Below are positions 8,360 through 25,035 of a stretch of DNA of 26,755 nucleotides, in pieces. The notes beneath the pieces are model-generated. The model had not been told where the DNA came from and ran no database searches. It saw only the letters and a list, made by a program, of their open reading frames with translations. Every line of letters begins with the position of its first letter. Position 1 is the stretch's first letter. This DNA comes from a virus. The stretch lies in the UHGV virus genome UHGV-0229226; one strand, given 5' to 3'. A program made the position numbers and the translations under genes.

Positions 8360-8373
8360 CGTATTTCTCCTGA

Positions 8374-9060
8374 TTAGAAGTTCAGATTTTTCAGTGCATT
8401 CAGTGCAGAGCCCACATCCTCAGCGTCGCGCAGGGACAGTGCGCCATAGCCCCCGGCCATGAATGCTTTGGCCTGGGTACGGGAGAGTCCGACATCACGC
8501 AGGACTCTTTCGATTTTTTTCTGTTCGGGGATTTCCCCGCGGGCCAGTGCGTTCTTGACGTCGCTGATCCGCGCCTCGTCGTTAGACGGGAACGTCACCA
8601 GGCTGACTTCCCAGAGGTCGATTTCTTTCAGCAGAAAGGCTTCTTTGCTCCGGTCGTATTCCCAGTCTTTCAGGACGTACCCAATAGAAAGGCCGGTTAA
8701 CGAACCGGCCTTCATGTGTGCATGTGCGCGTTTTGCGAGGGGATCATCATCAATAAGCAACCGTCCCCTGACGTAAAGCCCGACATCGTCTTCCTTCATT
8801 TCGGTGTAAACACCGATGGGTTCATCCATGCGGTGCTGCCAGAGCAGCGCAGGTAACGCTTTTCTGTCACTCCACGCCCGCAGGGAAGCAGCAAATGCCC
8901 CGGACATCACCACATCATCGTGGCTGTCCTTTACACCAAAGACGGAGCCATACCCTTCAAACTCACCGGAGTCACTGACAGATTTCAGACTCAGCGGTAC
9001 ATCAAGACGTTGTTTCGTCTGCATTGGCGTTATCCTTCTGCTTACCGGCTTTACTGCCAT
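8374..9060 (-). CDS. Prohead protease, HK97 family
   Basis: 228-aa ORF between portal and capsid. Start is uncertain (9060 or the internal Met at 9024) because the ORF overlaps the portal 3' end. Confidence 0.85.
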   Translation of the reverse strand: MAVKPVSRRITPMQTKQRLDVPLSLKSVSDSGEFEGYGSVFGVKDSHDDVVMSGAFAASLRAWSDRKALPALLWQHRMDEPIGVYTEMKEDDVGLYVRGRLLIDDDPLAKRAHAHMKAGSLTGLSIGYVLKDWEYDRSKEAFLLKEIDLWEVSLVTFPSNDEARISDVKNALARGEIPEQKKIERVLRDVGLSRTQAKAFMAGGYGALSLRDAEDVGSALNALKNLNF

Positions 9061-10243
9061 CGGAGGGTTTCGTGGTCATGTTCATCGGTGTGAGATAGAC
9101 ATCCCCACCGGGACGCGGATTCATATCTTCCAGGTCGCGGCAGTCATTAGGAGAGTAAATTCCCCAGTTGATCCCGGTGGCGTAGGCTTCAAAACGGGAC
9201 TTCATATCCCCGCGCAGTAACGCCCCGGCGTTAAATTTGGCGTAATAAACGCCCTGCTTACTTTTTCGTACCAGTCCGGTGTTGATCCGCTGTTCGATGC
9301 GGGTCAGATACGGCACCAGTGAATAGTTGATAAATCCCAGCCCCAGCTCTTCGATATTGTTGAAGGTGGCGCGATCGGTGTTCTGCACCATGTGCAACGG
9401 CACCCGAAACAGACGACAGATTTCTTCAAGCTGAAACTTGCGGGTTTCCAGGAACTGGCTGTCCTCGGCGTTCAGCGCCATCGACTTCCAGTCCAGCCCC
9501 ATCTCAAGGATCATCGGGCGGTGAGCATTGCCAAGCCCGGTGTGACGCTCCTCAAAATCTTTCTTCAGGCGCTCGTAAGCCTGATCTGACAGCGTCTGCT
9601 CTGTACGCAACACACCCGACGTCACCGCGCCATTGCTGAACAGTCTGGCCCCGTGCTCTTCGGTCGCTGCCGCCAGCGATATTGCCTCGCGGGCATAGGC
9701 GATGGGATTCAGCCCCACCAGTCCGTCCAGCGTCAGCGTGCGCACATGCCAGATATCCTCCTGGCTCAGTACATCCGTGGAGCCATCCGGGAATGTGACC
9801 TGATAGACCGGCTCCCAGCTACTGTTAAGCTTCGGTACCACACAGCCGGGATCGACGGGCAGCAGTTCAGCCACTTCGCCAAATGCTTTCACTTTGTAGG
9901 CGTAAAAGTTTCCCCGCAGGCACAGACAGGTGACCACCAGCTCCCAGAACTCCTGCGGCGTCATATAGCCATTGGGATGCGTGGAGATCAGCTTATGCAG
10001 ACGTTCGCCGGTGGCTCTCTGTTTCAGGCTGCCGTTCAGGTGATACAGATTGCAGGGCAACATCCCGACCGACTCTGCCAGCACCCTGACGCAGGAAAAA
10101 ACCGCCGTCAGTCGCATGGCCCGCTGGCTGCTGATCTGCTTTCCGGTATAGGTGTCGTAGGACAACCCGATAGCATCCGCCAGCTCTGCTGGCGTGGTCA
10201 CCGGTGCGTCACTTTTTTGTTGAAATAATCCCGAAAAGAACAC
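9002..10243 (-). CDS. Portal protein, HK97 family
   Basis: 413-aa ORF downstream of the large terminase, of the size and position of an HK97-type portal. Confidence 0.9.
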   Translation of the reverse strand: MFFSGLFQQKSDAPVTTPAELADAIGLSYDTYTGKQISSQRAMRLTAVFSCVRVLAESVGMLPCNLYHLNGSLKQRATGERLHKLISTHPNGYMTPQEFWELVVTCLCLRGNFYAYKVKAFGEVAELLPVDPGCVVPKLNSSWEPVYQVTFPDGSTDVLSQEDIWHVRTLTLDGLVGLNPIAYAREAISLAAATEEHGARLFSNGAVTSGVLRTEQTLSDQAYERLKKDFEERHTGLGNAHRPMILEMGLDWKSMALNAEDSQFLETRKFQLEEICRLFRVPLHMVQNTDRATFNNIEELGLGFINYSLVPYLTRIEQRINTGLVRKSKQGVYYAKFNAGALLRGDMKSRFEAYATGINWGIYSPNDCRDLEDMNPRPGGDVYLTPMNMTTKPSDGSKAGKQKDNANADETTS

Positions 10244-10425
10244 TATTTACCTCCGCCGACAGACGACTGTGTACGGTCGAGATATCGCGCCACCAGCCAC
10301 GACCAGAACAGGCACAGCGCCCCGGCAACAACAAAACCCGCCGGGGGATAAATCAGCCAGGCACCATACGCCAGCAAAAGCGCACCCAGCACGCCCACCA
10401 GTGGCGCGAGAATTATCAGAAACAT
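10243..10425 (-). CDS. Hypothetical small membrane protein
   Basis: 60-aa ORF with two hydrophobic segments ([24 protein letters not shown] and [16 protein letters not shown]). Its stop overlaps the portal start. Confidence 0.35.
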
Positions 10426-10436
10426 AATGACCTCGG

Positions 10437-12194
10437 TTAAAGCGAGCGGATGCCCACGCTGACCAGATGTTCAGACAGATCCGGCTCCGGTTCACCACCA
10501 TTGACCAGCATCCGGCTCATCGCTGTAAACATCGCAACAGGGCCGTCGATTTTGGCTTCCAGCGTGGATTTATTCGGGAAGATATTGTCGTTTTTGTCCG
10601 GTTTTACCGTAACGTTAGACATCATCCAGTTCATGACCGGATGATTGCTGTGATGGAAACGCCCGGCATAGACCAGTGATTCCGTTTCCTTCATGGCCTC
10701 TGACAGATTGCGAACCGTCTGCGGAACCTCCACCAGCGGTATCCCTTCTTCAGCCAGTGCCAGGCTGAACTGCATCGCGCTCCACGGGTCAAATCCCAGT
10801 TCCCTGAGGTTTTCACCACCAATCCATTCCAGTAAGTCACTTTTTATCTGAGCATGATCGATAACATCACCATCCGTCAGAATCAGCTTATCCATCTCCG
10901 CCCACTTCCGGTAAAGTTCTGCCTGCTGCCGCGAGCATCGTTCCAGCCGTCCTTCCGGAAGCCAGAATTTAAAATCGGCATGAACATGCCCGTTATCCGT
11001 TCGCCAGAGTTTTGCCGCCGCACAGATATCAATCTTATGAGCAAGGTCAACGCCGACCCACATGGGATACGTTTTCAGCTCATGTCGTGGGGCAATGTAT
11101 TCGCACTTCTCCCACTTAATCATATCCATCCAGGCAGATTCGGCAGTGACCCACACATTCATGTGTTTGGTAAAAAAATTCACCCGCGCAGAGACCTGCT
11201 CCTTCGCTTTTTTCGCCAGACGACGCAGATCATCCCAGCGTTTACAGATGCCCAGGCCAGGATTCGCTTTCTGCCAGACCGTTTCATCAAACGGATCATC
11301 TCCCTCATCGAGCGTGTAAATGATCGCAAAGTAGGAGTCGTCTTTTACCGCGCCCTCCACGTCGCTGTTATAGCCTCGCAATACCTTAATGGCGTAATCG
11401 CGCTGCTCGTAGCAAATCCCTTCCTTGTTAAAGCCAGCCGTGGTGATGCCAAATAACAGAGACTGCAGACGGGCACCGGTTGCCGTTTCCAGAACGTCCC
11501 ACACGTCACGGGTTTTATGAGCATGCAGCTCATCAATAATGGCGCAGTGGATGTTCAGACCGTCCAGGTTGTTTGCATCCGAGGAAAGCGGTTCAAATTT
11601 TGATGCGCTCTGCTCCTGGTAAATCGCCAGCTTGTTGAAATCAAACAACCGCCCGAGTGTCGACCGGGCTTTTCTGACCATATTTTTGGCGTCTTCAAAC
11701 ACAATTCTGGCCTGGTCACGCGTGGTTGCGGCTGAATACACCTCAGCACCGCCTTCACCATCTGCCCCCGTCATATACAGACCGATACCCGATGACAGGG
11801 TTGATTTTGCGTTTTTACGGGCAACTTCGTTGTATGCTGTCCGGAACCGGCGCACCATCACCGGGCGTCCACTGCCATCGCTGCGCATGACAACTTCCCC
11901 GGTTTCTTCATTCACCAGCGGAATGACAAAACCAAAAATATTAATGAGGATAAACACATGCCAGTCCATCAACTCAATGGGCTGACCTGCCAGCGCCCCT
12001 TTCACATGGGGTACAAATTTGTAGAAATTAAGGATGTGCTGTGCACGAGGTTCACTGAAATAAATCCCCCGCTCTTCGCCGTACTTCAGATCATCAAGAA
12101 AACGCTGGCAGGCCAGACGGACAAATTCGCCAGCAACAATTTCTCCTGCAACAACACGTTCGGCGTAGCGGATCCCGTCAGCCACTTTTGCCAT
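10437..12194 (-). CDS. Terminase large subunit
   Basis: 585-aa ORF; size and position fit a large terminase. Start is coupled to the small-subunit stop. Confidence 0.9.
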
Positions 12195-12676
12195 CAGTCT
12201 CTCGCTTTTAAAAGCTCTGCCAGCGGATCAACATCATCCGGTCCGGCGGTATTTACTTTCGCCCGGCTTGCCGGTGACATACCAAACTCTGCAAGCATCG
12301 CCCGAATCCGCTTCCAGGCATCAGCCTTCATCGCAGCAGCCGGGTGTGCCTTGATCAGCACATCGCCATTCTGCGTTTCCGTGCGGTAGGTATAACCCTC
12401 AACATCGAGTATTTCGCAGTGATGCCGGTATTCGGTGTAGGCTTCCACCAGTAACTCGAGCGCACGTGCATCGAGCTGAGAAATGATCCCTTCCGCATTC
12501 AGCTCTTCCGCCATTCGCCTGAACCAGTACTTCCCCTGCGCCCCTAAATGTTGCGGAATTTTAGGGAGACCTTTTTCATCCTTTTTAGCGGTTTTTTTGG
12601 AGTCTTTAACTGGCCGCTTAGAGGGGTTACCTCGTATCAAATGCAGGCGTGGCGGGGTTTTCGGGGGTCCAGACAT
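12194..12676 (-). CDS. Terminase small subunit (P27-type)
   Basis: 160-aa ORF with a basic N-terminus, directly upstream of and overlapping the large subunit. Confidence 0.8.
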   Translation of the reverse strand: MSGPPKTPPRLHLIRGNPSKRPVKDSKKTAKKDEKGLPKIPQHLGAQGKYWFRRMAEELNAEGIISQLDARALELLVEAYTEYRHHCEILDVEGYTYRTETQNGDVLIKAHPAAAMKADAWKRIRAMLAEFGMSPASRAKVNTAGPDDVDPLAELLKARD

Positions 12677-12823
12677 AATCGGTTTTACCTATCAATCATT
12701 TAATCACATTCCAAAAAAAAGTTTTCGAACCTGCGGCGATGCGAGGAAAGGTCAGGCGGCGGTACTGAGCAGCCAGGGTTGCAGAGATTTGACCCGCCCC
12801 TCCCCTACAGATGGGAAATGTTA
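12677..12823. other. Probable cos / packaging-initiation region
   Basis: In HK97-like phages cos lies between the HNH gene and the small terminase gene; this 147-bp gap is in exactly that position. The cohesive-end sequence itself is not identifiable by eye. Confidence 0.3.
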
Positions 12824-13174
12824 TCAATTGATGCGTTCGCACGCTGTTTTTGCTTTATGACAGGGCCAGCACAGACTCTGCAGGTTACTGTCTGCATCCG
12901 TGCCACCATGAGCTTTCGGAATGATGTGGTCCACAGTTCTGGCTTCAACGGCTCTCCCATTGCGCAGGCAGTTCTGACACAGATGATTATCACGCTTCAT
13001 TATGCGCGCACGTATGGCATCCCATTTCGAGCCATAGCCACGCTGGTGGCGACTCAGTCCGCGCTGATGCTGTACCCATCCTTCGCCACGATGTTTATCG
13101 CAGTAACCAGAACTGTCTGTGGTTGTACCTGCGCATCCACGCTTACGGCAGGCTCGTGGGATTCGTGATGGCAT
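12824..13174 (-). CDS. HNH endonuclease (terminase-associated)
   Basis: 116-aa ORF with Cys-rich HNH motifs (CQNCLRNGR...VDHIIPKAHGGTDADSNLQSLCWPCH) just upstream of the terminase genes. Confidence 0.85.
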   Translation of the reverse strand: MPSRIPRACRKRGCAGTTTDSSGYCDKHRGEGWVQHQRGLSRHQRGYGSKWDAIRARIMKRDNHLCQNCLRNGRAVEARTVDHIIPKAHGGTDADSNLQSLCWPCHKAKTACERIN

Positions 13175-13181
13175 AAATACC

Positions 13182-13382
13182 TCATACCCTGTTCGGTTTA
13201 ATGACAGGCTGATTCTCGATATGTTCTGCTGTCAGTCTGAAAGTCACAGTGACTGTTGGTGGCTCGCCTCCGCGTGTCTCTGTCCTGGCGGAAAGCTGCC
13301 CTTCCAGTAACTCACCATTAACTGCAATCCCATACCCTGCGAAATGTTTACCACGATACAGTTTAGCGACCTGAAACTTCAT
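13182..13382 (-). CDS. Hypothetical protein
   Basis: 66-aa ORF directly upstream of the HNH gene on the same strand. No family recognised. Confidence 0.4.
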   Translation of the reverse strand: MKFQVAKLYRGKHFAGYGIAVNGELLEGQLSARTETRGGEPPTVTVTFRLTAEHIENQPVIKPNRV

Positions 13383-13626
13383 AACTCTTCCTTTTAGACA
13401 TGTTAGACGTGAACCTGTCGCACGGCAGAGTCGCCGAAAGTTTACGGTTTACCCAGGCTCACAGCTGAAAGCCTTTCTTAGATGTGCACATGCGATATGC
13501 TTTGAATGAATTATTAAAAACTTTGCTCTTTTTCAAAATTTCGTATCCTGGCTCGTTAATGTTAAAGAATTAAACGTAAGAAAGTAGTATGTTGAATCGC
13601 TTATATCAAAATACATAGGACTCAAA

Positions 13627-14112
13627 ATGCCAGAACTCGTTGATCCAACAGACTCATTAATTAGTTTTCAATACGCCTTTTCTAATGGTCTGATTAAGCC
13701 TTCACCATGCATAGTTCACCCAAATATGAAGGTGCTTTTGGATGATGCAGAGGGTACACCACGGTTTACTTATGCATTCTTTGAAGGAGAAAATGTTAAA
13801 GGTGTTGCTATATATGTCCCTGCAGAGTTTGTTGAAGGTAAACCATGCTTTGGCGTTGGCTATGCAGTAGCTGATGAATATAAAGCGCAAGGCATCGGTA
13901 CTCAACTTCTCATCGCCAGCATTGAAGAAATGCAATACGGATTTAGAAATTCCTTCAATGAATTCTATGTAGAGGCTATTGTCGGGGTTGGTAATCAAGC
14001 CTCCAACAAATTAGCTGCAAAAGTTTTATCTGATACTCCTGAGCCAGGGACAGATTCTTACTCAGGAAAACCTATCAATCAGTACATGAAACTTTTCAAA
14101 ACCACAAAATAA
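13627..14112 (+). CDS. GNAT-like acetyltransferase-fold protein (moron)
   Basis: 161-aa ORF on the strand opposite the late operon. ATG is preceded by AGGA; the segment AQGIGTQLL resembles the GNAT acetyl-CoA binding motif. AT-rich flanks and its own downstream terminator. Confidence 0.5.
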   Translation: MPELVDPTDSLISFQYAFSNGLIKPSPCIVHPNMKVLLDDAEGTPRFTYAFFEGENVKGVAIYVPAEFVEGKPCFGVGYAVADEYKAQGIGTQLLIASIEEMQYGFRNSFNEFYVEAIVGVGNQASNKLAAKVLSDTPEPGTDSYSGKPINQYMKLFKTTK

Positions 14113-14122
14113 CTACCATTCT

Positions 14123-14144
14123 GGCGCAGATTTTTGCGCCTTTT
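14123..14144 (+). terminator. Rho-independent terminator of the GNAT-like gene
   Basis: GGCGC stem / GCGCC stem with an AGATTTTT loop, followed by TTTT, about 10 nt after the stop. Confidence 0.45.
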
Positions 14145-14290
14145 CAGGTTTGCAGTTCACCTGCCACGCTTTGTTATGCGCCTGAATGTCCCGCTTCGTC
14201 TGTTGCATTATCATAAGTAATAGCGTAGGTTGACACCCTGGCTCTCTTTCGCCACCGGCGAATCTTTAGCGGATTATCCTTGGCCGGTTT

Positions 14291-14758
14291 TTATCTGAGA
14301 CATTGCTCACGAATGTATAGCTGTGCCCCTTCCAGTTGCTTCTGCATCGTCATCAACCGTTCTCTGAGGGTGAAATAATCCCGTTCAGCGGTGTCTGCCA
14401 GTCGGGGGCTGGTTGCATTATCCACGCTGGTGGGTCCGGTGGCTTCACGCACGGCTGCGGAGCAACTGGCATTGACCCGCAGGCGCTTACGACCAGCGGC
14501 AACATCAGCGCGCAGGGTTTCATTTTCAGCTTTCGCATTGGCTAATTCTCTCGAGTACTTTGCATCGAGCGCAGCAACATCACGCTGACGCATCTGTATG
14601 TCAGTAATTGCCGCGTTCGCCAGCGTCAGTTCTCTGGCATTTTTGTCGCGCTGGGCTTTGTAGGTAATGGCGTTATCACGGTAATGATTAACAGCCCATG
14701 ACAGGCAGACGATGATGCAGATAACCAGAGCGGAGATAATCGCGGTTACTCTGTTCAT
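14291..14758 (-). CDS. Rz: Rz i-spanin
   Basis: N-terminal transmembrane segment ([18 protein letters not shown]) followed by a charged coiled-coil periplasmic domain. Start taken as MNRV at 14758, overlapping the endolysin stop. Confidence 0.8.
14353..14538 (-). CDS. Rz1: Rz1 o-spanin (outer-membrane lipoprotein) embedded in Rz in another frame
   Basis: 61-aa ORF with a lipobox-type signal (LPLVVSAC) and a proline-rich mature part, lying wholly inside Rz. Confidence 0.75.
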
Positions 14759-15252
14759 TGCTGACCCCACAAACAGATTTCACGCTCAATCTCACGACGA
14801 GTCATGAGACCTTTCCATTGCTTACCGCCAGCATATGTCCAGCGACGTAGCTGATCACATGCGCCTTTGATATCGCCCTGGTTTATTTTGCGAAGAAGCG
14901 TCGATGTTCTGAAATTGCCAGCACCCACGTTGTAAACGAATGAGTAAAGAGCGCCGCGCATTGTTTCCGGTATATCGACTTTGATGTACGGGTTAATTTG
15001 TCTGGCGACCGTGGCAAGGTCTTTATTCAGGAGGGCTTTGCATTCTGCTTTGGTATACGTTTTACCGAGCATGATGTCTTTTCCTGTATGCCCGTGACAT
15101 ACAGTCCATACACCAACAATATCTTTGTATGGTATGTAGCTGACACCTTCCAGACCATCGTTACCACTTGGGCCAGTGATTAACACTGATGCTATAGCAA
15201 TTGCTCCGCCACCAATAGCAGCAGCAACGGCTTTTCGTAATGATGGAGGCAT
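14755..15252 (-). CDS. R: SAR endolysin (phage 21 R-type lysozyme)
   Basis: 165 aa with a Gly/Ala-rich signal-anchor-release segment at the N-terminus ([20 protein letters not shown]) and a T4-lysozyme-like catalytic region (LEGVSY...KD...T). Very close to phage 21 R as I recall it. Confidence 0.9.
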
Positions 15253-15467
15253 TATTCACCTCTCGCAGCCTTGCGCTTATCTTCTTTAATCTTGAAATAA
15301 AGGTTTGTCAGGTACGTCAGCAGGCCAAATACCAGGCTACCCAGCACACCTATTGCCGCCCACTGTGAGGGCGTGACTTTATCGAGCAACTGTAAAAACC
15401 AGTACCCGGCACTACCTGCTGAGGTACCATAGGCGACACCCGTTGTTAACTTATCCATGGATTTCAT
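15252..15467 (-). CDS. S: Class II holin (pinholin, S21-type) with dual-start motif
   Basis: 71 aa, [26 protein letters not shown]..., two transmembrane domains, Met1 and Met4 dual start, charged C-terminus. Matches phage 21 S. Confidence 0.85.
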
Positions 15468-15593
15468 AACCCCACCTCGCAGACAAAGCGGGTGTAAATT
15501 AAGGGGATACTACGTATCGCAATAAAGGCAGAAACGTAACAGATTCGGAGTCAGTGAATAACTCAGGTATTGGGTTATCAGCTAATATCGAGA

Positions 15594-15629
15594 CTCAAAA
15601 AATGGAAAAACCCGCTCGACGGCGGGTTT
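15594..15629 (-). terminator. Rho-independent terminator about 140 nt upstream of the holin
   Basis: CCCGC-CGTCGA-GCGGG hairpin followed on the minus strand by TTTTTCCATTTTTT. A candidate tR'-type late terminator, or a terminator shielding the late operon from upstream transcription. Confidence 0.45.
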
Positions 15630-16055
15630 AAGCTGTGTGACGAAGTAACCACTCTTAACAGCATAACCAATTTTTTACGTACGTAAACTACTAAATGATA
15701 TTTGTGAGAATGCCACCGAGTGTTCAAAACACCACCACAAATGCATAAGAAAACTTCAACAAATAACCAGTTAATAATTTCCGATGTTATTTTTAGTTTG
15801 TTTAAATTAAGCTAAAGAATTATAGAGCACTTATAAATAAGTGCCATTAATATAAATTAGCTAATAGATTTATTTTTGTTCAGACAAGAGCCATGAATAG
15901 GATTAGATAGAAAAGGTTCAGATAAAAATAGAGATCTACTTCACAAATTAAATGAGAAACTAAAACTTACATCTTGAAATAATCACATTGATTAGATGAA
16001 TATTTATCGCGCAGTGACATCATTTTTTAATAATAGTTCAAAAAAAGGGCGTACA

Positions 16056-17138
16056 ATGAAAAAATTAACAGTGGCAATTTCTGCTGTAGCTGCATCAGTA
16101 CTGATGGCGATGTCTGCTCAGGCAGCTGAAATTTATAATAAAGACAGTAACAAGCTGGATCTATACGGGAAAGTTAATGCCAAGCACTACTTCTCCTCTA
16201 ATGATGCAGATGATGGTGATACTACTTATGCCCGTCTTGGCTTCAAAGGTGAAACCCAAATCAACGATCAACTGACTGGTTTCGGTCAGTGGGAATATGA
16301 ATTCAAAGGCAACCGTGCTGAATCTCAAGGTTCTTCCAAAGACAAAACCCGTCTTGCATTTGCAGGCCTGAAATTTGGTGATTACGGCTCAATCGATTAC
16401 GGCCGTAACTACGGTGTAGCATACGACATCGGTGCGTGGACTGACGTTCTGCCAGAATTCGGTGGTGATACCTGGACCCAAACAGATGTGTTCATGACTG
16501 GTCGCACTACTGGTGTTGCAACTTATCGTAACAACGACTTCTTTGGTCTGGTCGATGGCCTGAACTTTGCTGCTCAGTATCAGGGTAAAAATGACCGCAC
16601 TGACGTAACTGAAGCCAATGGTGATGGTTTCGGTTTCTCCACTACTTATGAGTATGAAGGATTCGGCGTGGGTGCAACCTATGCTAAATCAGATCGCACT
16701 GACGGTCAGGTCGCCTATGGTAAGAGCAAATTCAATGCCTCCGGCAAAAATGCGGAAGTATGGGCTGCAGGCCTGAAATATGATGCGAACAATATCTATC
16801 TGGCTACCACATATTCTGAAACTCAGAATATGACCGTTTTTGGTAATAACCATATTGCAAACAAAGCACAAAACTTTGAAGCAGTAGCACAATATCAGTT
16901 TGACTTCGGTCTGCGTCCATCTGTTGCTTACCTTCAGTCAAAAGGTAAAGACCTTGGTGTTCATGGTGACCGAGACTTAGTCAAGTATGTCGATGTCGGT
17001 GCTACTTACTACTTTAATAAAAACATGTCCACTTTTGTTGATTACAAAATCAACTTAATTGACGATAGTAAGTTTACCAAAACAGCTGGTATTGATACCG
17101 ACGACATCGTCGCTGTAGGTCTGGTTTATCAGTTCTAA
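16056..17138 (+). CDS. nmpC: Outer-membrane general porin (OmpC/OmpF family; phage-borne NmpC/Lc-like)
   Basis: Signal peptide [23 protein letters not shown] then [23 protein letters not shown]..., ending in the aromatic ...VAVGLVYQF typical of porins. Start taken at the internal ATG 16056, which has a AAGGG Shine-Dalgarno. Confidence 0.9.
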
Positions 17139-17148
17139 TCTGACTTAC

Positions 17149-17189
17149 GAAAAAGATATGTTGCGGGAGGCTTTGCCTCCGCAACATAT
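17149..17189 (-). terminator. Long inverted-repeat hairpin with U-run on the minus strand (candidate tR'-type terminator)
   Basis: ATATGTTGCGG(G)AGGC ... GCCTCCGCAACATAT, a ~15-bp stem, followed on the minus strand by CTTTTTCG. Lies about 140 nt downstream of Q. Confidence 0.5.
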
Positions 17190-17275
17190 AAGTGGAGCCC
17201 TCAAGCCACTTCCTTTAGAAGCACTACCTTGCTTCTTACTATATAAACCTTCTGTTATATATTACCCTTTATTTT

Positions 17276-17300
17276 GGGGGCGTTTCCACGCCCCATTTTT
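17276..17300 (+). terminator. Plus-strand rho-independent terminator downstream of the porin gene
   Basis: GGGGCGT-TTCC-ACGCCCC followed by ATTTTT on the plus strand. Confidence 0.45.
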
Positions 17301-17326
17301 AATAACTTTTAGTAAACAATTGCATA

Positions 17327-17710
17327 TCAATTAGAATTATTAGCAACGATATCCATATCTAACCGGATATCTAATGCCATTAACATCCCTTCAATTATGC
17401 CCTCAGCCTTCTGTAACCTTTTCCCGATATAACCATCCGAGCAGCAATGCTTACTTGCCAGTGACATGAATGTCATACCACATACATAATAATCTACTAA
17501 TAAATCGTGTAAATCGCTGTTGTTCTTTTTCAGACGGGCCATGCACCCGCAAATGATCATCGCGTCATCGTCACAACATTGCGGGCGAGATTTTACTTTT
17601 GAAGGAATTAATCCCTTAAAACCGGCGGCAATGGACGACCAGGTCACATCTTCATGATTATTAGCCGCCCACGCACCCCAACGCTCAAGAACCATCTGAA
17701 TATCACGCAT
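17327..17710 (-). CDS. Q: Late-gene antiterminator Q (DLP12 QuuD-like)
   Basis: [26 protein letters not shown]...[16 protein letters not shown]... matches my memory of the DLP12 Q-like antiterminator. ATG at 17710 has a GGAG Shine-Dalgarno; the ORF-track start at 17725 is a TTG. Confidence 0.85.
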
Positions 17711-17795
17711 CAACTTACTCCACAAAAATCAGACCAGAACGCCAATTACAAGCAAAAATCAACAAAACAGTATTAGTTGATTGTTATCTCTGACT

Positions 17796-17918
17796 TCATA
17801 CTCCTGTTCCTGTCAGGGTTTTGGCGTAATTCTTCAGTATTCGGTAATCGGTCAAAACAGAACCGAGGAAACGATATAAGCGCAGACGCCCCCAGCGGTG
17901 GCGAAGAAGTTCTGCCAT
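17796..17918 (-). CDS. Small ORF (40 aa) between rusA and Q, ylcG-like
   Basis: ATG at 17918, MAELLRHRWGRLRLYRFLGSVLTDYRILKNYAKTLTGTGV. Below the ORF-track size cut-off. Same position as ylcG in DLP12. Weak Shine-Dalgarno. Confidence 0.35.
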   Translation of the reverse strand: MAELLRHRWGRLRLYRFLGSVLTDYRILKNYAKTLTGTGV

Positions 17919-17932
17919 ATTAAACTCAAACA

Positions 17933-18295
17933 TCATTCATTCCCCATTTCGGTGATGGTCAGTTCCAGCCTCCCACCTTTGGTAACAGGCATCTTCACAA
18001 CGCGGTAATCAACGACCTGAGCATCATCCAGCCAGAAACCTGCTTTAGTGAGTGCGTCAAAAGCGGCTTTTTGCAGATTATCCAGGTCACGGCGACGGCG
18101 ATCCGGCATGTGGCACTCAATGCGGATTTTCACAGGCATAGCCAGGCCGATATCCAGCATTGCGTTTTTAATGATTCGGGCGACGTTATCGCGGTATGCC
18201 TGCCCCTCTGCGCTGACGTGCGTGCGCCCGCGATTATGGCGGTAATAGCGATTATTGCTCGGAGGCCAGGGTAATGTGATGCTGTAGGTATTCAC
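17933..18295 (-). CDS. rusA: Holliday junction resolvase RusA
   Basis: 120 aa; the motifs [13 protein letters not shown] and ...[28 protein letters not shown] are typical of RusA. GTG start overlaps the stop of the upstream remnant (GTGA). Confidence 0.9.
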
Positions 18296-18420
18296 GCCTT
18301 AATAACCCCCTCTTTCAGCCACATAACCTGTGTTCTCGCCATACCTTCCAGCGCGCATTCTTTTGCATATGCAGCATCGACTTGCTTGGCATGCCCTTTA
18401 CCGGCAATCTTCTGTATGCG
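18292..18420 (-). pseudogene. 3' remnant of a ybcO-like (DUF1364-type) gene
   Basis: In the frame coupled to the rusA start, 42 codons read [42 protein letters not shown], resembling the C-terminus of prophage YbcO as I recall it. Two in-frame stops (TAG at 18421-18423 and 18427-18429) and no start codon precede it. Confidence 0.4.
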
Positions 18421-18501
18421 CTAAACCTAGATAGAATCCACTCTGTGCACATTGAAGCCCGCTCTATGCTTTCTTTCAGGTATTGAAGGGATTGAGATGG
18501 G

Positions 18502-18849
18502 CTAAGCATTATTGGCCTCCTGCATCAGGAGAAAGACAATCATGGCGGCGCGGAGAGGTCTGGTATCAAATATTGGGCTTACGCCTTTTGCATCCACACA
18601 CCATTCAGTTAACTGGTCTAAGATAGAAATCCTGTATTTCTCAATAATCGGCCATGAAGCGCTCGGATCATTGCAGTAGTCAGGCAAATGATTTAATGGC
18701 TCAAAAGTTGTATCAGCATTTCCGTAATACCATTTGTTGGTGTTATTCCCTGATGTTTCCGGTTTACTTGCCCAAAGGCCTTTAAAAATTATGTCTCCTA
18801 CCATTCTGTTAATTTCAAAATCACTTAACTGTGAATAATCCATTGTCAT
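18502..18849 (-). CDS. Hypothetical nin-region protein
   Basis: ORF 18502..18885; the likely start MTMDYSQL at 18849 overlaps the ninE stop (ATGA). No confident family assignment. Confidence 0.5.
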
Positions 18850-19022
18850 TTCCTCGCACGATATCTTAGCCACCGGATATCCCACAGGTGGGCTGTGTAA
18901 TTGAAGGTTTTTACGTCAGATTCTTTTGGGATTAGCTTGCGTTTATTTCTGGAGCGTTTCGTTGGAAGGTATTTGCAGTTTTCGCAGATTATGTCGGTGA
19001 TGCTTCGTCGCTGTCGTCTCAT
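18846..19022 (-). CDS. ninE: NinE-family protein
   Basis: 58 aa from the ATG at 19022 (overlapping the methylase stop): [58 protein letters not shown], matching what I recall of lambda NinE. Confidence 0.6.
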
Positions 19023-19546
19023 GCAGCCCTCCTGACGCCCTGCCCGATCGCCATCAATGCCGCTTTGGATACGGTAGTAAACATCCGTCGAGGACTGATG
19101 AACGGTCGCCAAATCAGCAGCATGGAGCCTTTGCTGTTTCCCTTCTTCTCCAGCCCTGTCGATGGTTCGATAAAATTAATCCGTCCATCAGTGATAATAC
19201 GAACTTCGTCAACACTCTCCAGAGCCTTGCTGAACCATCCGACAGACATATCCTCTGGCACAAGCATCACTACCGTCTGTCGCTGTTGTATACACTGCTC
19301 AGCGGCTTTTTCCACCCACGGCCTGATATTGCTGTACGGTGGGTTATTCCAGATTGCACCGTGGCTTACCCACTCAGAATTGAGCGCGTCGTCGTCCTCA
19401 GTTAGCCAGTGAGCGCACAGAGCATTTTTGTCGCTCGCTGCCGAATCCAGCCAGAATCCAAACTCAATATCCAGTGCATCAAAAAGCCAAAGCGGCGTTT
19501 GCCAGCAGTCCTTGTCGTGTGCTGGCGTATTTGATTTGATAGTCAT
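19019..19546 (-). CDS. Phage DNA N6-adenine methyltransferase (Dam-like)
   Basis: From the ATG at 19546 (ATGA overlap with the ninB stop): [26 protein letters not shown]...WNNPPYS..., with the NPPY catalytic motif of N6-adenine methyltransferases. Confidence 0.8.
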
Positions 19547-19983
19547 GCAGCCCGATCTCCCCATCGCGCTTTCCATTCGAGAGCCAGTCGCGCTTCGTCT
19601 GACCACTTAACGCCACGCTCTGTACCGAATGCCTGTATAAGCTCTAATAGCTCCGCAAATTCGCTTACACGCATCCTGCTGGTTGACTGGCCTATTACCA
19701 CAAAGCCATTCCCGGCAAGGTTAGGAACAACATCCTGCTGCTTTAATGCTGCGGTAAACACACACTTCCAGCTTTCTGCATCCAGCCAGCGACCATGCCA
19801 TTCAACCTGACGAGAGACGTCACCTAAGCAGGCCCATAGCTTCCTGTTTTGGTCTAAGCTGCGGTTGCGTTCCTGAATGGTTACTACGATTGGTTTGGTT
19901 GGGTCTGGAAGGATTTGCTGTACTGCGTGAATAGCGTTTTGCTGATGTGCCGGAGATCGAATTTCAAAGGTTAGTTTTTTCAT
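19543..19983 (-). CDS. ninB: Recombination protein NinB
   Basis: MKKLTFEIRSPAHQQNAIHAVQQILPDPTKPIVVTIQERNRSLDQNRKLWACLGDV... is essentially lambda NinB. ATG at 19983 has a GGGGAG Shine-Dalgarno. Confidence 0.85.
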   Translation of the reverse strand: MKKLTFEIRSPAHQQNAIHAVQQILPDPTKPIVVTIQERNRSLDQNRKLWACLGDVSRQVEWHGRWLDAESWKCVFTAALKQQDVVPNLAGNGFVVIGQSTSRMRVSEFAELLELIQAFGTERGVKWSDEARLALEWKARWGDRAA

Positions 19984-19999
19984 GACTTCCCTCTCCCCC

Positions 20000-20031
20000 A
20001 AATAAAAAGGCCTGCGATTACCTGCAGGCCT
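20000..20031 (-). terminator. Rho-independent terminator between ren and ninB (tR2-like)
   Basis: AGGCCTGC ... GCAGGCCT 8-bp stem followed on the minus strand by TTTTTATTT. This is the position of lambda tR2. Confidence 0.55.
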
Positions 20032-20056
20032 GTTATTAGCTCAGTGATGTAGATGG

Positions 20057-20347
20057 TCATCTTTTAACTCCATATACCGCCAATATCCGTTTCATCGTGG
20101 CACTCTGGCGACACTCCTTAAAAATCAGGTTCGTGCTCATCTTTCCTTCCCGTTCTTCCTTGGTAGCAAACCGGTAATACACCGTTCGCCAGACCTTACC
20201 TTCGATAACCAGAAGACCTGCCCGTGCCATTTTAGCCGCGGCCTGATTTATGCTGGTTACTGTTGCGCCTGTTAGCGCGGCAACGTCCGGCGCACAGAAG
20301 CTATTATGCGTCCCCAGGTAATGAATAATTGCCTCTTTGCCCGTCAT
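20057..20347 (-). CDS. ren: Ren protein
   Basis: 96 aa, MTGKEAIIHYLGTHNSFCAPDVAALTGATVTSINQAAAKMARAG..., near-identical to lambda Ren as I recall it. Confidence 0.85.
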   Translation of the reverse strand: MTGKEAIIHYLGTHNSFCAPDVAALTGATVTSINQAAAKMARAGLLVIEGKVWRTVYYRFATKEEREGKMSTNLIFKECRQSATMKRILAVYGVKR

Positions 20348-21045
20348 ACACTTGCTCCTTTCAGTCCTAACTTAGCTTTAATTTCTGCGATCTTCGCCAG
20401 CGCCTGAACACGATTTAGAGGTCTGCCGCCCATGACAGGAAGTTGTTTTACTGGTTCAGGTATCGTCTCACCACGGTTAATTCGCGCTGTCATACAGGTC
20501 AGTTCATCGGCAGCCTTGCGTCGTAATTCCGCGTCAGTCAGCGCATTGGCCCGCATGTTCTGGTACAGGTTGGTAACCAGCCAGTAGTGCGCGTTCGATT
20601 TCCACGGATAAGACTCTGCATCCGGATACAGGCCTCGCTTCCGGCAATACTCGTAAACCATATCAACCAGCTCGCTGAGGTTTGGCAGTCCGGCGATAAC
20701 GGATGCTTCTTCCCGGCACCATGCAACAAACTGCCCGGGTGATGGCAGAAATGGTCGATTCTGCCGACGGGCTACGCGCATTCCTGCGTTAACCTGTTCC
20801 ATTGTGGTGATCCCGTTTTCCCGGAAAGCCAGAACCCACTGGCGGCGGATTTCGTTCAGTTCGTTCTGGTCACGGTTAGCCAGACTCGCCGGGAAAGTTG
20901 CCAGTAACTGGCTGAACACACCGTTGATGATCTGCGCTACCTGCTGTACCTGCGGCTTTTCGTCGTACTGTTCCGGCATGTTGTTGGCGATCCGACGCAT
21001 CTGCTCACGGTCAAAATTAACCATCTGTGCGGCGATGTTTTTCAT
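20344..21045 (-). CDS. P: Replication protein P (DnaB helicase loader)
   Basis: 233 aa, MKNIAAQMVNFDREQMRRIANNMPEQYDEKPQVQQVAQIING..., near-identical to lambda P. Confidence 0.95.
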   Translation of the reverse strand: MKNIAAQMVNFDREQMRRIANNMPEQYDEKPQVQQVAQIINGVFSQLLATFPASLANRDQNELNEIRRQWVLAFRENGITTMEQVNAGMRVARRQNRPFLPSPGQFVAWCREEASVIAGLPNLSELVDMVYEYCRKRGLYPDAESYPWKSNAHYWLVTNLYQNMRANALTDAELRRKAADELTCMTARINRGETIPEPVKQLPVMGGRPLNRVQALAKIAEIKAKLGLKGASV

Positions 21046-21941
21046 AAATCCACCCCGTAAATCCAGTCAGTGTTTGTCAGGTCGAGTTTTGGTTTGCAGG
21101 CTGTCACACCTGCCTGTTGCTTGTTACGGTTGATTTCGAGCTGGGTCCACTTGTCGCGGAGTTTGGCCGGGCTCAGCACGTTACCGGACCAGAAGTTGTC
21201 CTGGCATGCCCAGCGGAACAGTACACACATGTCGCGATGGTTACGTCCGTCACGTTCACGCATCAGGCGGATATCGTTAGCCCACCCTGCAAAATTCGGT
21301 TTTCTGGCTGATGGCGCGATGGTCTTCACCATGTCAAACATCCATTCTGCGGCGGTCAGGTCTTCTGCTGTCCCCCACTTGCTGCCGCTCTGAATTGCAG
21401 CATCCGGTTTCACCACAGAAAGGTCGTTTTCTGGCTGGTCAGAGGATTCGCCAGAATTCTCTGACGAATAATCTTTTCTTTTTTCTTTTGTAATAGTGTC
21501 TTTTGTGTCCCCCTGTTTTGAGGGATAGCAATCCCCCAATTTGAGGGATGTTTTATCCCTCGTTTTAGGGGATTTTCCCTCGTTTTGAGGGATACACCAT
21601 TCTGAGATGTTTTTATTTGGTCCAAACATGCCGCCTTGCTGCTTGATAATATTCATTCTGACGAGTTCTAACTTGGCTTCATTGCACCGTTTGACGGGTA
21701 ACTTTGTAATCTCGCTAAGTTGAGAATCGGTGATTCTGTCCATTGGTTTATTCCATCCATAGGTTTTACGCAGAATGGCAAGCAGCACTTTAAACTGTCG
21801 CTTGGTCAGATCTGCGCCTGAATAAGCCTCAAGCAGCATATTTGATAGTCTGGCGTAACCATCATCGAGATCTGCCACATTACGCTCCTGTTTGGCAAAG
21901 TTACCTCTGCAGAAGTTGAGTATTTTTGCTGTATTTGTCAT
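21042..21941 (-). CDS. O: Replication initiator protein O
   Basis: 299 aa, MTNTAKILNF...GADLTKRQFKVLLAILRKTYGWNKPMDRITDSQLSEITKLPVKRCNEAKLELVRMNII..., near-identical to lambda O. Contains the ori iterons. Confidence 0.95.
   Translation of the reverse strand: MTNTAKILNFCRGNFAKQERNVADLDDGYARLSNMLLEAYSGADLTKRQFKVLLAILRKTYGWNKPMDRITDSQLSEITKLPVKRCNEAKLELVRMNIIKQQGGMFGPNKNISEWCIPQNEGKSPKTRDKTSLKLGDCYPSKQGDTKDTITKEKRKDYSSENSGESSDQPENDLSVVKPDAAIQSGSKWGTAEDLTAAEWMFDMVKTIAPSARKPNFAGWANDIRLMRERDGRNHRDMCVLFRWACQDNFWSGNVLSPAKLRDKWTQLEINRNKQQAGVTACKPKLDLTNTDWIYGVDL
21450..21595. repeat. Replication origin (ori-lambda type): four ~19-bp iterons plus adjacent AT-rich region, inside the O gene
   Basis: Four iterons of the lambda ori consensus type at about 21508-21526, 21531-21549, 21555-21573 and 21576-21594 (tccccctgttttgagggat, atcccccaatttgagggat, atccctcgttttaggggat, tccctcgttttgagggata). 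The AT-rich tract at 21450-21505 lies downstream in the O reading direction. Confidence 0.85.
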
Positions 21942-21973
21942 AATGACTCCTGTGGATTGATCCAGTAATGACC

Positions 21974-22270
21974 TCAGAATTCCATCTGGATTTGTTCAGA
22001 ACGCTCGGTTGCCGCCGGGCGTTTTTTATTGGTGAGTCCATCAAGCGCATACTTAAAAGCCCTGCTAATCGGACTGATGTCTGATGCCATTCCGAAAGCA
22101 CACAAGACCGAAGCAATAAATCTCCAGTCCGTTCTGCTTATCTTCGATTCATGACAGCCAATCATCTTTGCCAGACCGCGCTGGGTAATAGCTGACAGAT
22201 TGATAAGTAAATCTGTTTCTGCGCGATCAACGTCACGCTGTGATAGTTTGCTGTAACTTGTTCTTTCCAT
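21974..22270 (-). CDS. cII: Transcriptional activator CII
   Basis: 98 aa in the cro-cII-O order. The C-terminus ...TNKKRPAATERSEQIQMEF matches the lambda CII C-terminus; the N-terminal half diverges. Confidence 0.8.
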   Translation of the reverse strand: MERTSYSKLSQRDVDRAETDLLINLSAITQRGLAKMIGCHESKISRTDWRFIASVLCAFGMASDISPISRAFKYALDGLTNKKRPAATERSEQIQMEF

Positions 22271-22355
22271 TTCTTAAGATTTCCAATAGTGAATAGTTAG
22301 TTGAAAGGTATGCGTGGAAACGCATATGGCCTTAGTTGGTCAGATATCTTGGAAC

Positions 22356-22401
22356 TCGCTTTTCAGCGACGTAGGACGAATGTCCGTTGTTACAAAGAGC
22401 G
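22356..22401 (-). promoter_or_regulatory. nutR: boxA-like CGCTCTTTG plus boxB hairpin TCGCT-GAAA-AGCGA
   Basis: On the minus strand just after the cro stop: CGCTCTTTGTAA (plus 22390-22401), then about 20 nt on the hairpin TCGCTGAAAAGCGA (plus 22356-22369). Spacing and boxB loop match the nutL candidate at 25036-25081. Confidence 0.5.
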
Positions 22402-22411
22402 GATCCGCTTA

Positions 22412-22627
22412 TTAAGCGGCTTTGTGTTCCGGCGGGAACACGTCATCAAGACTGACTTTTGCGCCTAACTTGTTTAGGCACGCAACAAGAGCACGGCATG
22501 TTTTAAGGTCTGGGAAGCGACGACCAGATTCCCAATGTCCGATAGCTCCCTGTGTGCATCCAACTGCCTTAGCAAGTGTTGTTTGAGAGATATTCAGTGA
22601 CTCTCGATATTTTCGTAGGTTGCTCAT
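22412..22627 (-). CDS. cro: Cro repressor (HTH)
   Basis: 71 aa from the ATG at 22627, which has a GGAGG Shine-Dalgarno: MSNLRKYRESLNISQTTLAKAVGCTQGAIGHWESGRRFPD..., a helix-turn-helix. Divergent from cI. The longer ORF-track ORF would run across the operator region. Confidence 0.8.
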   Translation of the reverse strand: MSNLRKYRESLNISQTTLAKAVGCTQGAIGHWESGRRFPDLKTCRALVACLNKLGAKVSLDDVFPPEHKAA

Positions 22628-22744
22628 ATGCCCTCCATAGTAAACACGAATAAAAAAATACAATATGTACTTTGCGAATACAAGTAAAAATACACATTGT
22701 GCATGGATGGTTCCAGTACAGAGCGTAATAATAAGGACATGAAA
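22628..22744. promoter_or_regulatory. Immunity-region control region (OR operators with PR and PRM), inferred
   Basis: 117-bp AT-rich gap between divergent cro and cI. It contains the palindrome CACATTGTG and AGTAC-type half-sites like those near PL. Exact operators and promoters are not resolved by eye. Confidence 0.45.
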
Positions 22745-23398
22745 ATGAAATGGTATGAACTGGCTAGATCCAGAATGAAAGAGCTCGGCATAACTCAAGA
22801 GAAGTTAGCCGAAGAGCTAGGTATGACGCAGGGTGGGATTGGACACTGGTTGCGCGGATCTCGTCATCCATCTCTTAGTGATATTGGTGTGGTGTTTAAA
22901 TACCTTGGTATTGATAACATATCATTCAACCACGACGGGACATTTTCACCTGTTGGCGAATACTCATCGGCCCCAGTTAAAAAACAATATGAGTACCCTG
23001 TTTTTTCTCATGTTCAGGCTGGGATGTTCTCTCCAGAACTCAGAACCTTTACCAAAGGCGATGCGGAGAGATTGGTAAGCACAACCAAAAAAGCCAGTGA
23101 CTCTGCATTCTGGCTTGAGGTTGAAGGTAACTCAATGACCGCACCAACAGGTTCCAAACCCAGCTTTCCTGACGGGATGTTAATTCTGGTTGACCCTGAG
23201 CAAGCTGTTGAGCCCGGCGATTTCTGCATAGCCAGACTTGGTGGTGATGAATTTACCTTCAAGAAACTGATCAGGGATAGCGGTCAGGTGTTTCTACAGC
23301 CACTAAACCCACAATACCCAATGATCCCATGCAATGAGAGTTGTTCCGTTGTGGGGAAAGTTATCGCCAGCCAATGGCCTGAAGAGACGTTTGGGTGA
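22745..23398 (+). CDS. cI: CI-type prophage repressor (HTH plus S24 LexA-like autopeptidase domain)
   Basis: N-terminal HTH ([23 protein letters not shown]) and C-terminal S24 domain with the catalytic Ser in GNSM and the Lys in FKKL. Start is 22745 (best Shine-Dalgarno spacing) or 22739; the ORF-track start 22697 is a TTG inside the operator region. Confidence 0.85.
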
Positions 23399-23437
23399 TG
23401 AAACCACTTTTATCTACAATTTACAGGGCGGTAAACA

Positions 23438-23995
23438 TTGGCAAAAATAGATGATTATCAGCCAAGCCAAGTAGAAGTTGATAAAGTACTTTATTGTAAA
23501 AAAATAGTTAACTTTTCTGGCGTTAAATGGAAACAGAAACCAAGTCGCTCTGATATGTGGCTACAAGCCCATATCATCCCCTTGGATGAGGATTGTATAC
23601 CTATACAAGGGCTAAAGTTTGAACTGAAATGGAAACCAGATCAGGATTCAGAACCTGATGACCCGATTTCTTACCCTAAAATAAATATTATTGCTTTCTA
23701 TCATAACAAGAGGGTTTTCGCGGTAGATACCTATCACTTTGACAAACACACGAATAGTTACAAGGTCGATCATCCGAAGTACCAAGATATCATTTACGGT
23801 GCTCACTACCATGTATACTATGAAGAAGCTGGATACTATAGTGATAGAATAGCGTTTCCAATCGAAGATGACATAAACCCAGATGACCTGGTAGGGTATT
23901 GGAATTACTTCTGTAAACATCTGAACATAACTTACTCTGGGAGAATACCTTTACCGCTTGAAGATGAGTCGGGGCAAATGGGGTTTGGAATATGA
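23438..23995 (+). CDS. Hypothetical protein, first gene of the cassette in the rexAB position
   Basis: 185-aa ORF 40 nt after cI on the same strand. Soluble, rich in Tyr, Asp and His, with no motif I recognise. Low-GC codon usage. Its stop overlaps the next start (ATGA). Exact start codon is uncertain (see findings). Confidence 0.6.
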   Translation: MAKIDDYQPSQVEVDKVLYCKKIVNFSGVKWKQKPSRSDMWLQAHIIPLDEDCIPIQGLKFELKWKPDQDSEPDDPISYPKINIIAFYHNKRVFAVDTYHFDKHTNSYKVDHPKYQDIIYGAHYHVYYEEAGYYSDRIAFPIEDDINPDDLVGYWNYFCKHLNITYSGRIPLPLEDESGQMGFGI

Positions 23996-24744: not shown

Positions 24745-24748
24745 TACA

Positions 24749-24775
24749 ACCCGGCCTCAGCGCCGGGTTTTCTTT
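24749..24775 (+). terminator. Rho-independent terminator ending the cI-cassette operon
   Basis: ACCCGGC-CTCAGC-GCCGGGT, a 7-bp GC stem, followed by TTTTCTTT, 5 nt after the stop of the second cassette gene. Confidence 0.6.
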
Positions 24776-24948
24776 GCCTCACGTTCGCCCACCTAAAAAC
24801 ACATAACCAATTATATTTATTGAAAAATAAATAGATGCAACCCACTAAACCACGCAATTCTGATCTCTCCTTACATCGCCGAGGCAATACATCCACGCTA
24901 AAAAACAACACTATTAAATACAAAGCGTTATAAAAAACCACGCCAACT

Positions 24949-24991: not shown

Positions 24992-25035
24992 TTAACCGTC
25001 AGCAGGACGCTGGAAGCCAAATGGAACAGACTGGC

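Follow-up and report, generated by a model that had tools for sequence, protein, structure and literature searches.

The nmpC/lc porin locus of lambdoid prophages has been known since the 1970s–80s, and the exclusion logic of its phage PA-2 version turns on OmpC as a phage receptor. The locus analysed here lies in UHGV virus genome UHGV-0229226 (26,755 nt; hereafter the window), in which the minus strand of the 14.3–18.3 kb segment makes up the late-regulatory region of a lambdoid prophage; a porin gene is found there between the gene for the antiterminator Q and the lysis genes. This gene is the NmpC/Lc moron already known from such prophages, intact but ordinary, and is not new. What the analysis adds is the probable position of the late promoter and its terminator, downstream of the porin, and the boundaries of the inserted cassette. 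We consider it very probable that the porin gene, together with the IpeX RNA contained in its 3′-untranslated region (3′UTR), is wedged between codon 120 of Q and the late promoter PR′, so that late transcription need not cross the porin.

In the DLP12 (qsr′) prophage of Escherichia coli K-12, gene order and orientation (quuD-nmpC-essD-rrrD-rzpD/rzoD) are the same as in the window. The literature places nmpC within this prophage and describes it as silenced in K-12 by an insertion element; the K-12 gene is split by IS5 near its 3′-end, whereas the window copy is intact. DLP12 is, in addition, a defective prophage, whereas in the window element the HK97-like structural module is complete. Phage PA-2 is alike, by description, in bearing a general porin gene, lc, that is expressed in lysogens, and a 3′UTR RNA, ipeX, that lowers OmpC and OmpF (Schnaitman 1975; Castillo-Keller 2006; both as cited by others). 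Shiga toxin (Stx) phages (Sakai Sp5/Sp15, BP-4795; 933W-type Q) share with the window a homologous Q (76–80% amino acid identity over residues 1–120), promoter, initial transcribed region and first hairpin. In these phages, however, there is an overlap between PR′ and the end of Q, and the tRNAs and stx that form the cargo are in sense, downstream of the terminator tR′, and Q-dependent; in the window an antisense cassette of ∼1.65 kb parts Q from PR′, there is no 258-nt StxS leader with a second terminator, and the ATG of the holin is at +187 of the predicted late transcript. OmpD of Salmonella and OmpC, OmpF and PhoE of E. coli resemble the window porin in family, length, the L3 motif PEFGGD, the C-terminal Phe and the signal peptide, but the window gene differs in its place on a mobile prophage, where it is flanked by Q and the lysis genes. 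The features on which the comparison rests are the following:

15597–15629, minus strand: tR′-like hairpin and U-tract, between PR′ and the holin gene (hairpin at +25 to +46, 15629–15608; U-tract to +57)
15653–15687, minus strand: PR′-like late promoter (−35 hexamer TTTACG at 15687–15682, 16-nt spacer, −10 hexamer TATGCT at 15665–15660, predicted +1 the A at 15653)
15691–16055, plus strand: AT-rich upstream region of the porin gene
16056–17138, plus strand: porin coding sequence (CDS), NmpC/Lc/OmpD type, 360 aa, with the signal peptide encoded at 16056–16124
17139–17305, plus strand: porin 3′UTR of 167 nt, which matches the IpeX RNA of the literature and runs from the stop codon to where the terminator U-tract ends (∼17305)
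17149–17189, both strands: strong 15-bp hairpin, 21 nt after the porin stop codon; on the plus strand, the first IpeX stem
17277–17300, plus strand: intrinsic terminator of the porin/IpeX transcript, GGGGCGTTTCCACGCCCC (17277–17294) followed by ATTTTT, detected by the terminator scan
17327–17710, minus strand: Q antiterminator (QuuD type, Q21 family), 127 aa from MRDIQ, matching PF06530 with E = 7.7e-54

The porin gene is intact. In the initial annotation it had been started at 15996; an in-frame open reading frame (ORF) from 15996 to 17138 is indeed present on the plus strand, but the ATG at 15996 is a mechanical upstream start, and the 20 extra residues it provides have no counterpart in any porin. 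The start assigned by the RefSeq Prokaryotic Genome Annotation Pipeline to the identical gene is the equivalent of 16056 (MKKLTV..., 360 aa). In alignments with PDB entries, precursor OmpF chains match from about residue 8–9 and mature chains from residue 24, which gives a 23-aa signal peptide ending AQA|AEIYNK. The gene start should thus be annotated at 16056. The Pfam profile Porin_1 (PF00267) matched the product over the entire model (E = 2.2e-151, profile positions 1–337 of 337), and the solved chains of OmpC, OmpK36, PhoE and OmpF covered residues 24–360 end to end (E = 1e-137 to 1e-111), up to the last residue; the L3 motif and the C-terminal Phe (...GLVYQF) are in place. The profile, the structural matches and the strands of the ORFs agree in upholding the proposal of the initial annotation that a complete general porin, signal peptide included, is encoded opposite to Q and the lysis genes; set against full-length homologues, the gene is undisrupted. 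By homology, the protein would form a trimeric diffusion channel in the outer membrane.

With respect to its name, the porin scored 521 bits with the NCBIfam 'porin OmpC' subfamily model (cut-off 484), the only one it passed, and remained below the equivalog cut-offs for PhoE and OmpF. The exact sequence belongs to a 2741-member cluster whose members are named 'porin OmpC', 'porin OmpD' or 'outer membrane porin protein LC'. When K-12 NmpC was repaired by removal of IS5, 331 of 365 aligned positions (90.7%) were identical to the window porin, and the differences fell into five short clusters plus two small indels; judging from porin structures, these clusters probably lie in external surface loops. 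NmpC/Lc-type prophage porin is a more suitable name than 'OmpC'.

The cassette boundaries were defined from the two sides. PF06530 is the Q21 family (PMC9388147), and the window Q matched the structure of Q21 (PDB 6P18) with E = 4e-8. The Q proteins of the window, DLP12, Lambda_2E9, BP-4795 and Sp5 are collinear up to residue 120; up to that point the window protein is 96% identical to K-12 QuuD, and 80% and 76% identical to the Q proteins of BP-4795 and Sakai Sp5, respectively. After residue 120 the C-termini diverge, ending in IVANNSN in the window and DLP12, in ADCLR in Lambda_2E9, and in a 24-aa tail in the Stx phages. Because the Q sequences diverge at codon 120 and homology to the Stx phages resumes in the −35 region, at ∼15690, the insert relative to the Stx layout spans ∼15691–17350. 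The porin cassette would thereby have swapped the last ∼24 codons of an Stx-phage-type Q for seven new codons and a stop. It contains the AT-rich region, the porin gene and IpeX; the porin and Q genes are convergent, and the porin/IpeX terminator ends ∼27 nt before the Q stop codon.

For late transcription, the initial annotation had left two alternatives, a start downstream of the porin or antisense read-through of it. The first is favoured, and the second disfavoured, by homology to an Stx PR′ mapped by differential RNA sequencing (dRNA-seq). When the window was compared by local BLAST with Stx1 phage BP-4795, the single match outside coding regions was 15606–15690 (79% over 85 nt, E = 1.5e-10), in the same orientation. 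The BP-4795 segment begins in the last codons of Q; the alignment extends to Sakai Sp5, where it lies directly after Q, and to DLP12, and the PR′ leader of the Stx phages has a homologous hairpin. In Sakai, 258 nt separate the PR′ start from the tR′ 3′-end in the dRNA-seq and Term-seq maps, where they are 'closely associated with Q' (PMC7547250). To set the register in Sp5, the Term-seq 3′-end was aligned with the final T of the U-tract of tR′ in NC_002695.2, and the numbering was then transferred to the window. In the Sp5 register the transcription start site (TSS) falls 7 nt after the hexamer TATCAT and the reported RNase E site, GU|AUU, falls exactly at +173; the TSS, the tR′ 3′-end and the RNase E site are three mutually consistent anchors for Sp5. 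Since the segment 15690–15606 is homologous to this mapped promoter, the late promoter of the window most likely lies downstream of the porin.

Conservation of the PR′-like unit is consistent with this position. The stretch 15580–15679 is essentially invariant (∼100%) among 46 unique loci, and no other non-coding block of the locus is as well conserved. Between the window and DLP12 the identity of the unit is 98.9%, compared with 85% for the holin leader, 89% for the AT-rich region and 84% for the porin CDS. A conserved 13-mer, TAAGAGTGGTTAC, spans the predicted +1 (15657–15645) and occurs exactly once each in DLP12, ev017, ABU 83972, Kati, BP-4795 and Sp5. The unit was found in 363 phage records and this type of Q in 362, with the same identity bands. 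In four loci from IMG/VR the holin module downstream is a different one, but the unit has stayed beside Q and the porin; in L046, the only one of them inspected in detail, the exchanged module encodes part of a methylase, a lipoprotein, a NanS-like protein of 653 aa and a different holin. Between the unit and this holin, every L046 ORF of 90 aa or more is in sense save one of 98 aa on the minus strand, which overlaps the gene for the 653-aa protein at its 3′-end and was taken as spurious. According to a review of DLP12 (PMC7918800), the Q-type antiterminator of this prophage governs its lysis operon; the regulatory fragment cited there is numbered −121 to +650, a numbering that fits a TSS ∼187–190 nt 5′ of essD. 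Downstream of the promoter, the terminator scan found at 15629–15608 a GC-rich hairpin of 8 bp, after which UUUUUCCAUUUUUU runs to 15597; its folding energy is −12.2 kcal/mol (z = −2.2). Two features of a Q21-family cassette are present in the window, namely a PF06530 Q and a promoter homologous to an experimentally mapped PR′, then an intrinsic terminator before the late genes. The PR′ homologue does not adjoin the Q gene; it is 1.64 kb from the Q stop codon, with the porin cassette in between.

Several observations weigh against placing the late promoter there. The Q-binding element is described as two 8-bp direct repeats within −40 to −1, accompanied by a sigma-dependent pause element (bioRxiv 10.1101/651190); no convincing direct-repeat element of the Q21 type was seen in 15693–15654, nor a confident sigma-dependent pause element, the conserved TGGTTAC(T/A)T at +3 to +11 being a candidate for the latter. 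The promoter hexamers are weak (8 of 12 positions) and were missed by the standard scan, and the U-tract that follows the hairpin is interrupted. The tR′-like hairpin has GCTGG and not GCGGG in its 3′ arm (equivalents of 15608–15612) in about 16 of 80 IMG/VR loci, an uncompensated G>T change that predicts a weaker terminator and possibly leakier expression of the lysis genes in those prophages. The 3′-end mapped in the Stx phages is the second terminator, at +258, and not the homologous hairpin. Finally, two minus-strand promoter-like matches that are equally weak (8/12) adjoin Q, at 17288–17259 and 17265–17238, and could yield a transcript ending at the 17189–17149 terminator. Since all candidates score 8/12, a consensus promoter scan does not separate the rival promoter positions. 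Published work on sigma-factor SELEX and on R-loops in DLP12 yielded no usable information.

These Q-adjoining matches are the starting point of a first alternative, in which PR′ would be directly 3′ of Q (∼17290–17235, minus strand), 17189–17149 would be tR′, and the Q-modified polymerase would read antisense through the ∼1.7-kb cassette and the 15629–15597 terminator. A very stable hairpin with a U-run lies 60–100 nt downstream of these matches and would give a 6S-like short transcript as in lambda. Lambda_2E9 provides a parallel (locus L004, 2802–3483), its Q (84% identical) being followed within ∼130 nt by a terminator like tR′ of the Stx phages and then by an antisense lipocalin (Blc) gene, with no PR′ unit of the TAAGAGTGGTTAC type recognisable before the holin. 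The Q-proximal stretch of the window, however, has no homology to any mapped PR′, and IpeX, on the opposite strand, already accounts for its conservation; the homologue of the mapped Stx PR′ lies downstream of the porin and is conserved better than any other non-coding block, and in mEp460_4F5, SfIV and L046 antisense cargo lies upstream of the PR′-like unit and sense cargo downstream of it. A promoter adjoining Q was therefore judged unlikely.

With the late promoter downstream of the porin, the locus would work as follows. The stretch ∼15691–17350 would be a self-contained cassette (AT-rich promoter region, 360-aa porin with a Sec signal, 167-nt structured 3′UTR and terminator) that, by analogy with the published systems, would be transcribed from the plus strand during lysogeny, without depending on the lytic programme of the phage. 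Its protein is predicted to enter the host outer membrane as an extra channel of the OmpC/OmpF class, and the 3′UTR RNA would lower OmpC and OmpF, as described in the PA-2/DLP12 literature. The altered porin set of the lysogen would alter receptor display, i.e. lysogenic conversion. Late transcription would most likely start at ∼15653 on the minus strand, the exact TSS being a prediction. Without Q it would presumably end at the hairpin 15629–15597; with Q it would read into the holin-endolysin-spanin genes and the structural genes, and the porin would never be crossed antisense. As PR′ is 1.64 kb from its gene, Q must act in trans. The hairpin 17189–17149 would presumably stop un-antiterminated transcripts leaving Q before they reach the porin. 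Identity, intactness, layout and the homology and exceptional conservation of the PR′ unit come from the present comparison; lysogen expression, IpeX activity and control of the DLP12 lysis cassette by Q come from the literature. The split between a Q gene and its target promoter by a cassette, in a widespread prophage family, is a modestly useful architectural insight, which explains how an antisense conversion gene coexists with Q-dependent late transcription. As a discovery it has little weight, given that the porin moron, its position, the IpeX RNA and expression in lysogens of extraintestinal pathogenic E. coli (ExPEC) are all documented.

The 3′ part of the cassette corresponds closely to IpeX. 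The length listed for DLP12 ipeX is also 167 nt (PMC12197685), and 17139–17305 is 94% identical to its DLP12 counterpart. The RNA folds into four hairpins (−53.6 kcal/mol, z = −6.5). In an RNAalifold analysis of 22 unique homologues variation avoided the stems, with 6 of 34 variable columns falling within the 76 paired positions of 174; no compensatory pairs were found among these homologues, so the fold is unsupported by covariation. Rfam searches (gathering and E-value modes) and a tRNA scan of the window and of 15400–17400 returned nothing relevant, and IpeX has no Rfam model. The IpeX 3′UTR and the PR′/tR′ unit carry no annotation in the phage and RefSeq records inspected. The svsR RNA of prophage NC-SV was considered and set aside; it is a different RNA, near cI, and its paper makes no mention of a porin. 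In different strains, the porin 3′-end and the IpeX region have been repeatedly struck by insertion sequences (IS) or deletions; examples are IS5 in L001 (4592–5786), IS1 in H26 UPEC_U013, an IS200-type tnpA in L049 (7562–8284) and a gap in L038 (5430–5610). In L049 the IS200/IS605-type transposase gene separates the porin stop codon from the rest of IpeX, and the porin CDS is intact.

The initial annotation had also proposed two minus-strand terminators bracketing the insert. Both exist as hairpins, at 17189–17149 (z = −6.1) and 15629–15597 (z = −2.2), but they do not bracket it: the latter belongs to the late operon as its tR′-like element, the former lies inside the porin 3′UTR, and the real terminator of the porin is the plus-strand hairpin 17277–17294, which had been overlooked. 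This last hairpin of IpeX has a folding energy of −13.8 kcal/mol (z = −2.95). The stem at 17189–17156 gave −21.9 kcal/mol on the minus strand (z = −6.1; none of 200 shuffled sequences was as stable) and −22.5 kcal/mol on the plus strand (z = −5.0); K-12 retains it with a shifted bulge. On the minus strand it is followed by CUUUUU (to 17149), with which it can stop transcripts leaving Q; on the plus strand there is no U-tract.

Upstream of the porin, the initial annotation had recognised a single AT-rich region of 590 bp (15468–16055). Its AT-richness was borne out (27–30% GC, against 47–55% in the adjacent phage genes), but the stretch is a composite of three parts: 15468–15597 is the holin leader, 15598–15690 is the minus-strand PR′-like promoter/leader/terminator unit, and only 15691–16055 is the porin's own upstream region. 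Over 46 unique sequences the proximal part of the latter (15920–16039) is 96–100% conserved and the distal part 79–92%. A sigma-70 scan gave just weak matches (8/12), e.g. at 15954–15983. A perfect 8-bp inverted repeat, GCACTTAT-AA-ATAAGTGC, is present at 15825–15846, ∼210 nt 5′ of the porin start, and may be the binding site of a regulator. The sequence GCAGTGAC at 16011–16018, in the presumed 5′UTR of the porin, is complementary at seven of eight positions to the 5′ seed of RybB. In the literature, nmpC mRNA is listed as a RybB target.

That the porin is a lysogenic-conversion moron, as first proposed, is supported by published data showing that near-identical copies are transcribed in lysogens and present in outer-membrane proteomes. 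In the Perceval prophage of strain LF82, whose locus is 99.4% identical to that of the window, nmpC expression was 10-fold above the prophage background in LB medium, and the authors class it as a moron (PMC9928086). Both nmpC copies of CFT073 were strongly induced at 37°C at the RNA and protein levels, and NmpC was present in the outer-membrane proteome of 89% of uropathogenic E. coli (UPEC) isolates. The gene has, in addition, its own plus-strand terminator (17277–17294) and an upstream region of 27–30% GC, and phi467 and Lambda_2E9 carry other cargo at the same site. A point on the other side is that an intact nmpC has been termed 'quiescent' in E. coli B, according to a paper title cited elsewhere, so that expression is strain- and condition-dependent.

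This report bears on a second alternative, in which the window porin would be intact but transcriptionally silent, a quiescent passenger silenced in the manner of H-NS, and no lysogenic conversion would occur. The low GC content of the upstream region with its weak promoter matches, the quiescence described in E. coli B (known from that title) and the repeated IS strikes, which suggest dispensability, would agree with it. Against this, near-identical copies are expressed (10-fold in Perceval/LF82; RNA and protein in CFT073 at 37°C), NmpC is found in most UPEC outer-membrane proteomes, and the proximal 120 nt of the upstream region are 96–100% conserved; we accordingly give silence of the gene a low probability. 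The remaining alternative, a chromosomal ompC/ompD paralogue beside prophage remnants, to which the RefSeq name 'porin OmpC' and the NCBIfam subfamily match might point, is refuted by the identical locus inside isolated temperate phages (ev017, PhiR57_1, Perceval, 2G7b and others) and the constant Q-porin-holin order in 80 of 80 IMG/VR viral contigs, and was considered extremely improbable.

The 2601-bp stretch 15200–17800 is 100% identical to the isolated phages ev017 and PhiR57_1 and to many B2/ExPEC chromosomes (ABU 83972, IHE3034, APEC IMT5155 and others), and at least 80% of the locus is present in 2392 of 5426 complete E. coli genomes. The 80 viral contigs mentioned above are those long enough to show the porin between Q and the holin; the IMG/VR relatives were found with the Q protein and are 97–100% identical, thus testing constancy of layout rather than diversity. 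Other morons are known at the junction between Q and the holin gene S, including stx in phi467, blc in Lambda_2E9 and bor/lom in lambda, which occupy the same hot spot with different cargo; stx is in sense and Q-dependent, whereas the window porin is antisense and probably autonomous. Phage phi467 shares the structural and lysis modules of the window (96.5%) but has stx2 and tRNA-Gly/Thr between Q and the holin. As the cargo of this gap differs across phages, the gap is a general cargo site. The window is a mosaic, 1–15481 being 96.5% like Stx2 phage phi467 and 14328–25000 being 99.6% like the lambda-like phage ev017, with the lysis cassette as the overlap.

The order Q, antisense cargo, PR′-like unit, sense cargo and holin recurs in L009 (mEp460_4F5; 1510–2578), L010 (SfIV; 974–2265) and L046 (9020–13800); antisense ORFs of 308 aa and 356 aa lie directly upstream of the unit, and the methylase, lipoprotein and NanS-like genes are in sense, downstream of it. 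Antisense cargo is found upstream of the unit in the window and DLP12, mEp460_4F5 and SfIV, and sense cargo downstream of it in the Stx phages, L046 and, as a methylase gene, mEp460_4F5. This recurring layout suggests a placement rule for morons around PR′, and the four layouts examined (window/DLP12, mEp460_4F5, SfIV and L046) fit it; Lambda_2E9 has no recognisable PR′ unit. In the Q21 family, a moron in antisense would be tolerated only if it lies upstream of PR′, and one in sense only if it lies downstream of tR′; Q codon ∼120 would be the recombination hot spot. The cassette may also have been placed deliberately between Q and PR′, where it would be insulated from late transcription and exposed to early transcription. 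On induction, early transcripts antiterminated by N would pass Q and the 17189–17149 hairpin and then run antisense over IpeX and the porin, which would switch off the conversion functions (OmpC/OmpF restored or NmpC removed) as lysis begins. We regard this combination of deliberate placement, antisense switch-off and placement rule as a tentative and rather doubtful proposal.

The remaining genes of the region, which like Q lie on the strand opposite to the porin, are as follows:

14291–14770, minus strand: Rz ORF (PF03245); the annotated rzpD equivalent starts later, at 14752
14353–14538, minus strand: Rz1 (PF06085)
14755–15252, minus strand: lysozyme (PF00959)
15252–15467, minus strand: S21-type holin (PF04971)
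14291–15467, minus strand: the lysis cassette (holin-endolysin-spanin) formed by these genes, which correspond to essD-rrrD-rzpD-rzoD of DLP12
17933–18295, minus strand: RusA

Next to the lysis cassette, an ORF for a GNAT-family acetyltransferase (13627–14112, plus strand; PF00583, E = 4e-6) lies in an island of 36–42% GC (13200–14290), between an HNH endonuclease gene (12824–13174, minus strand) and Rz. Phage phi467 is empty at this place, and ev017 and ABU 83972 carry bor/iss there; the ORF is probably a second, uncharacterised moron.

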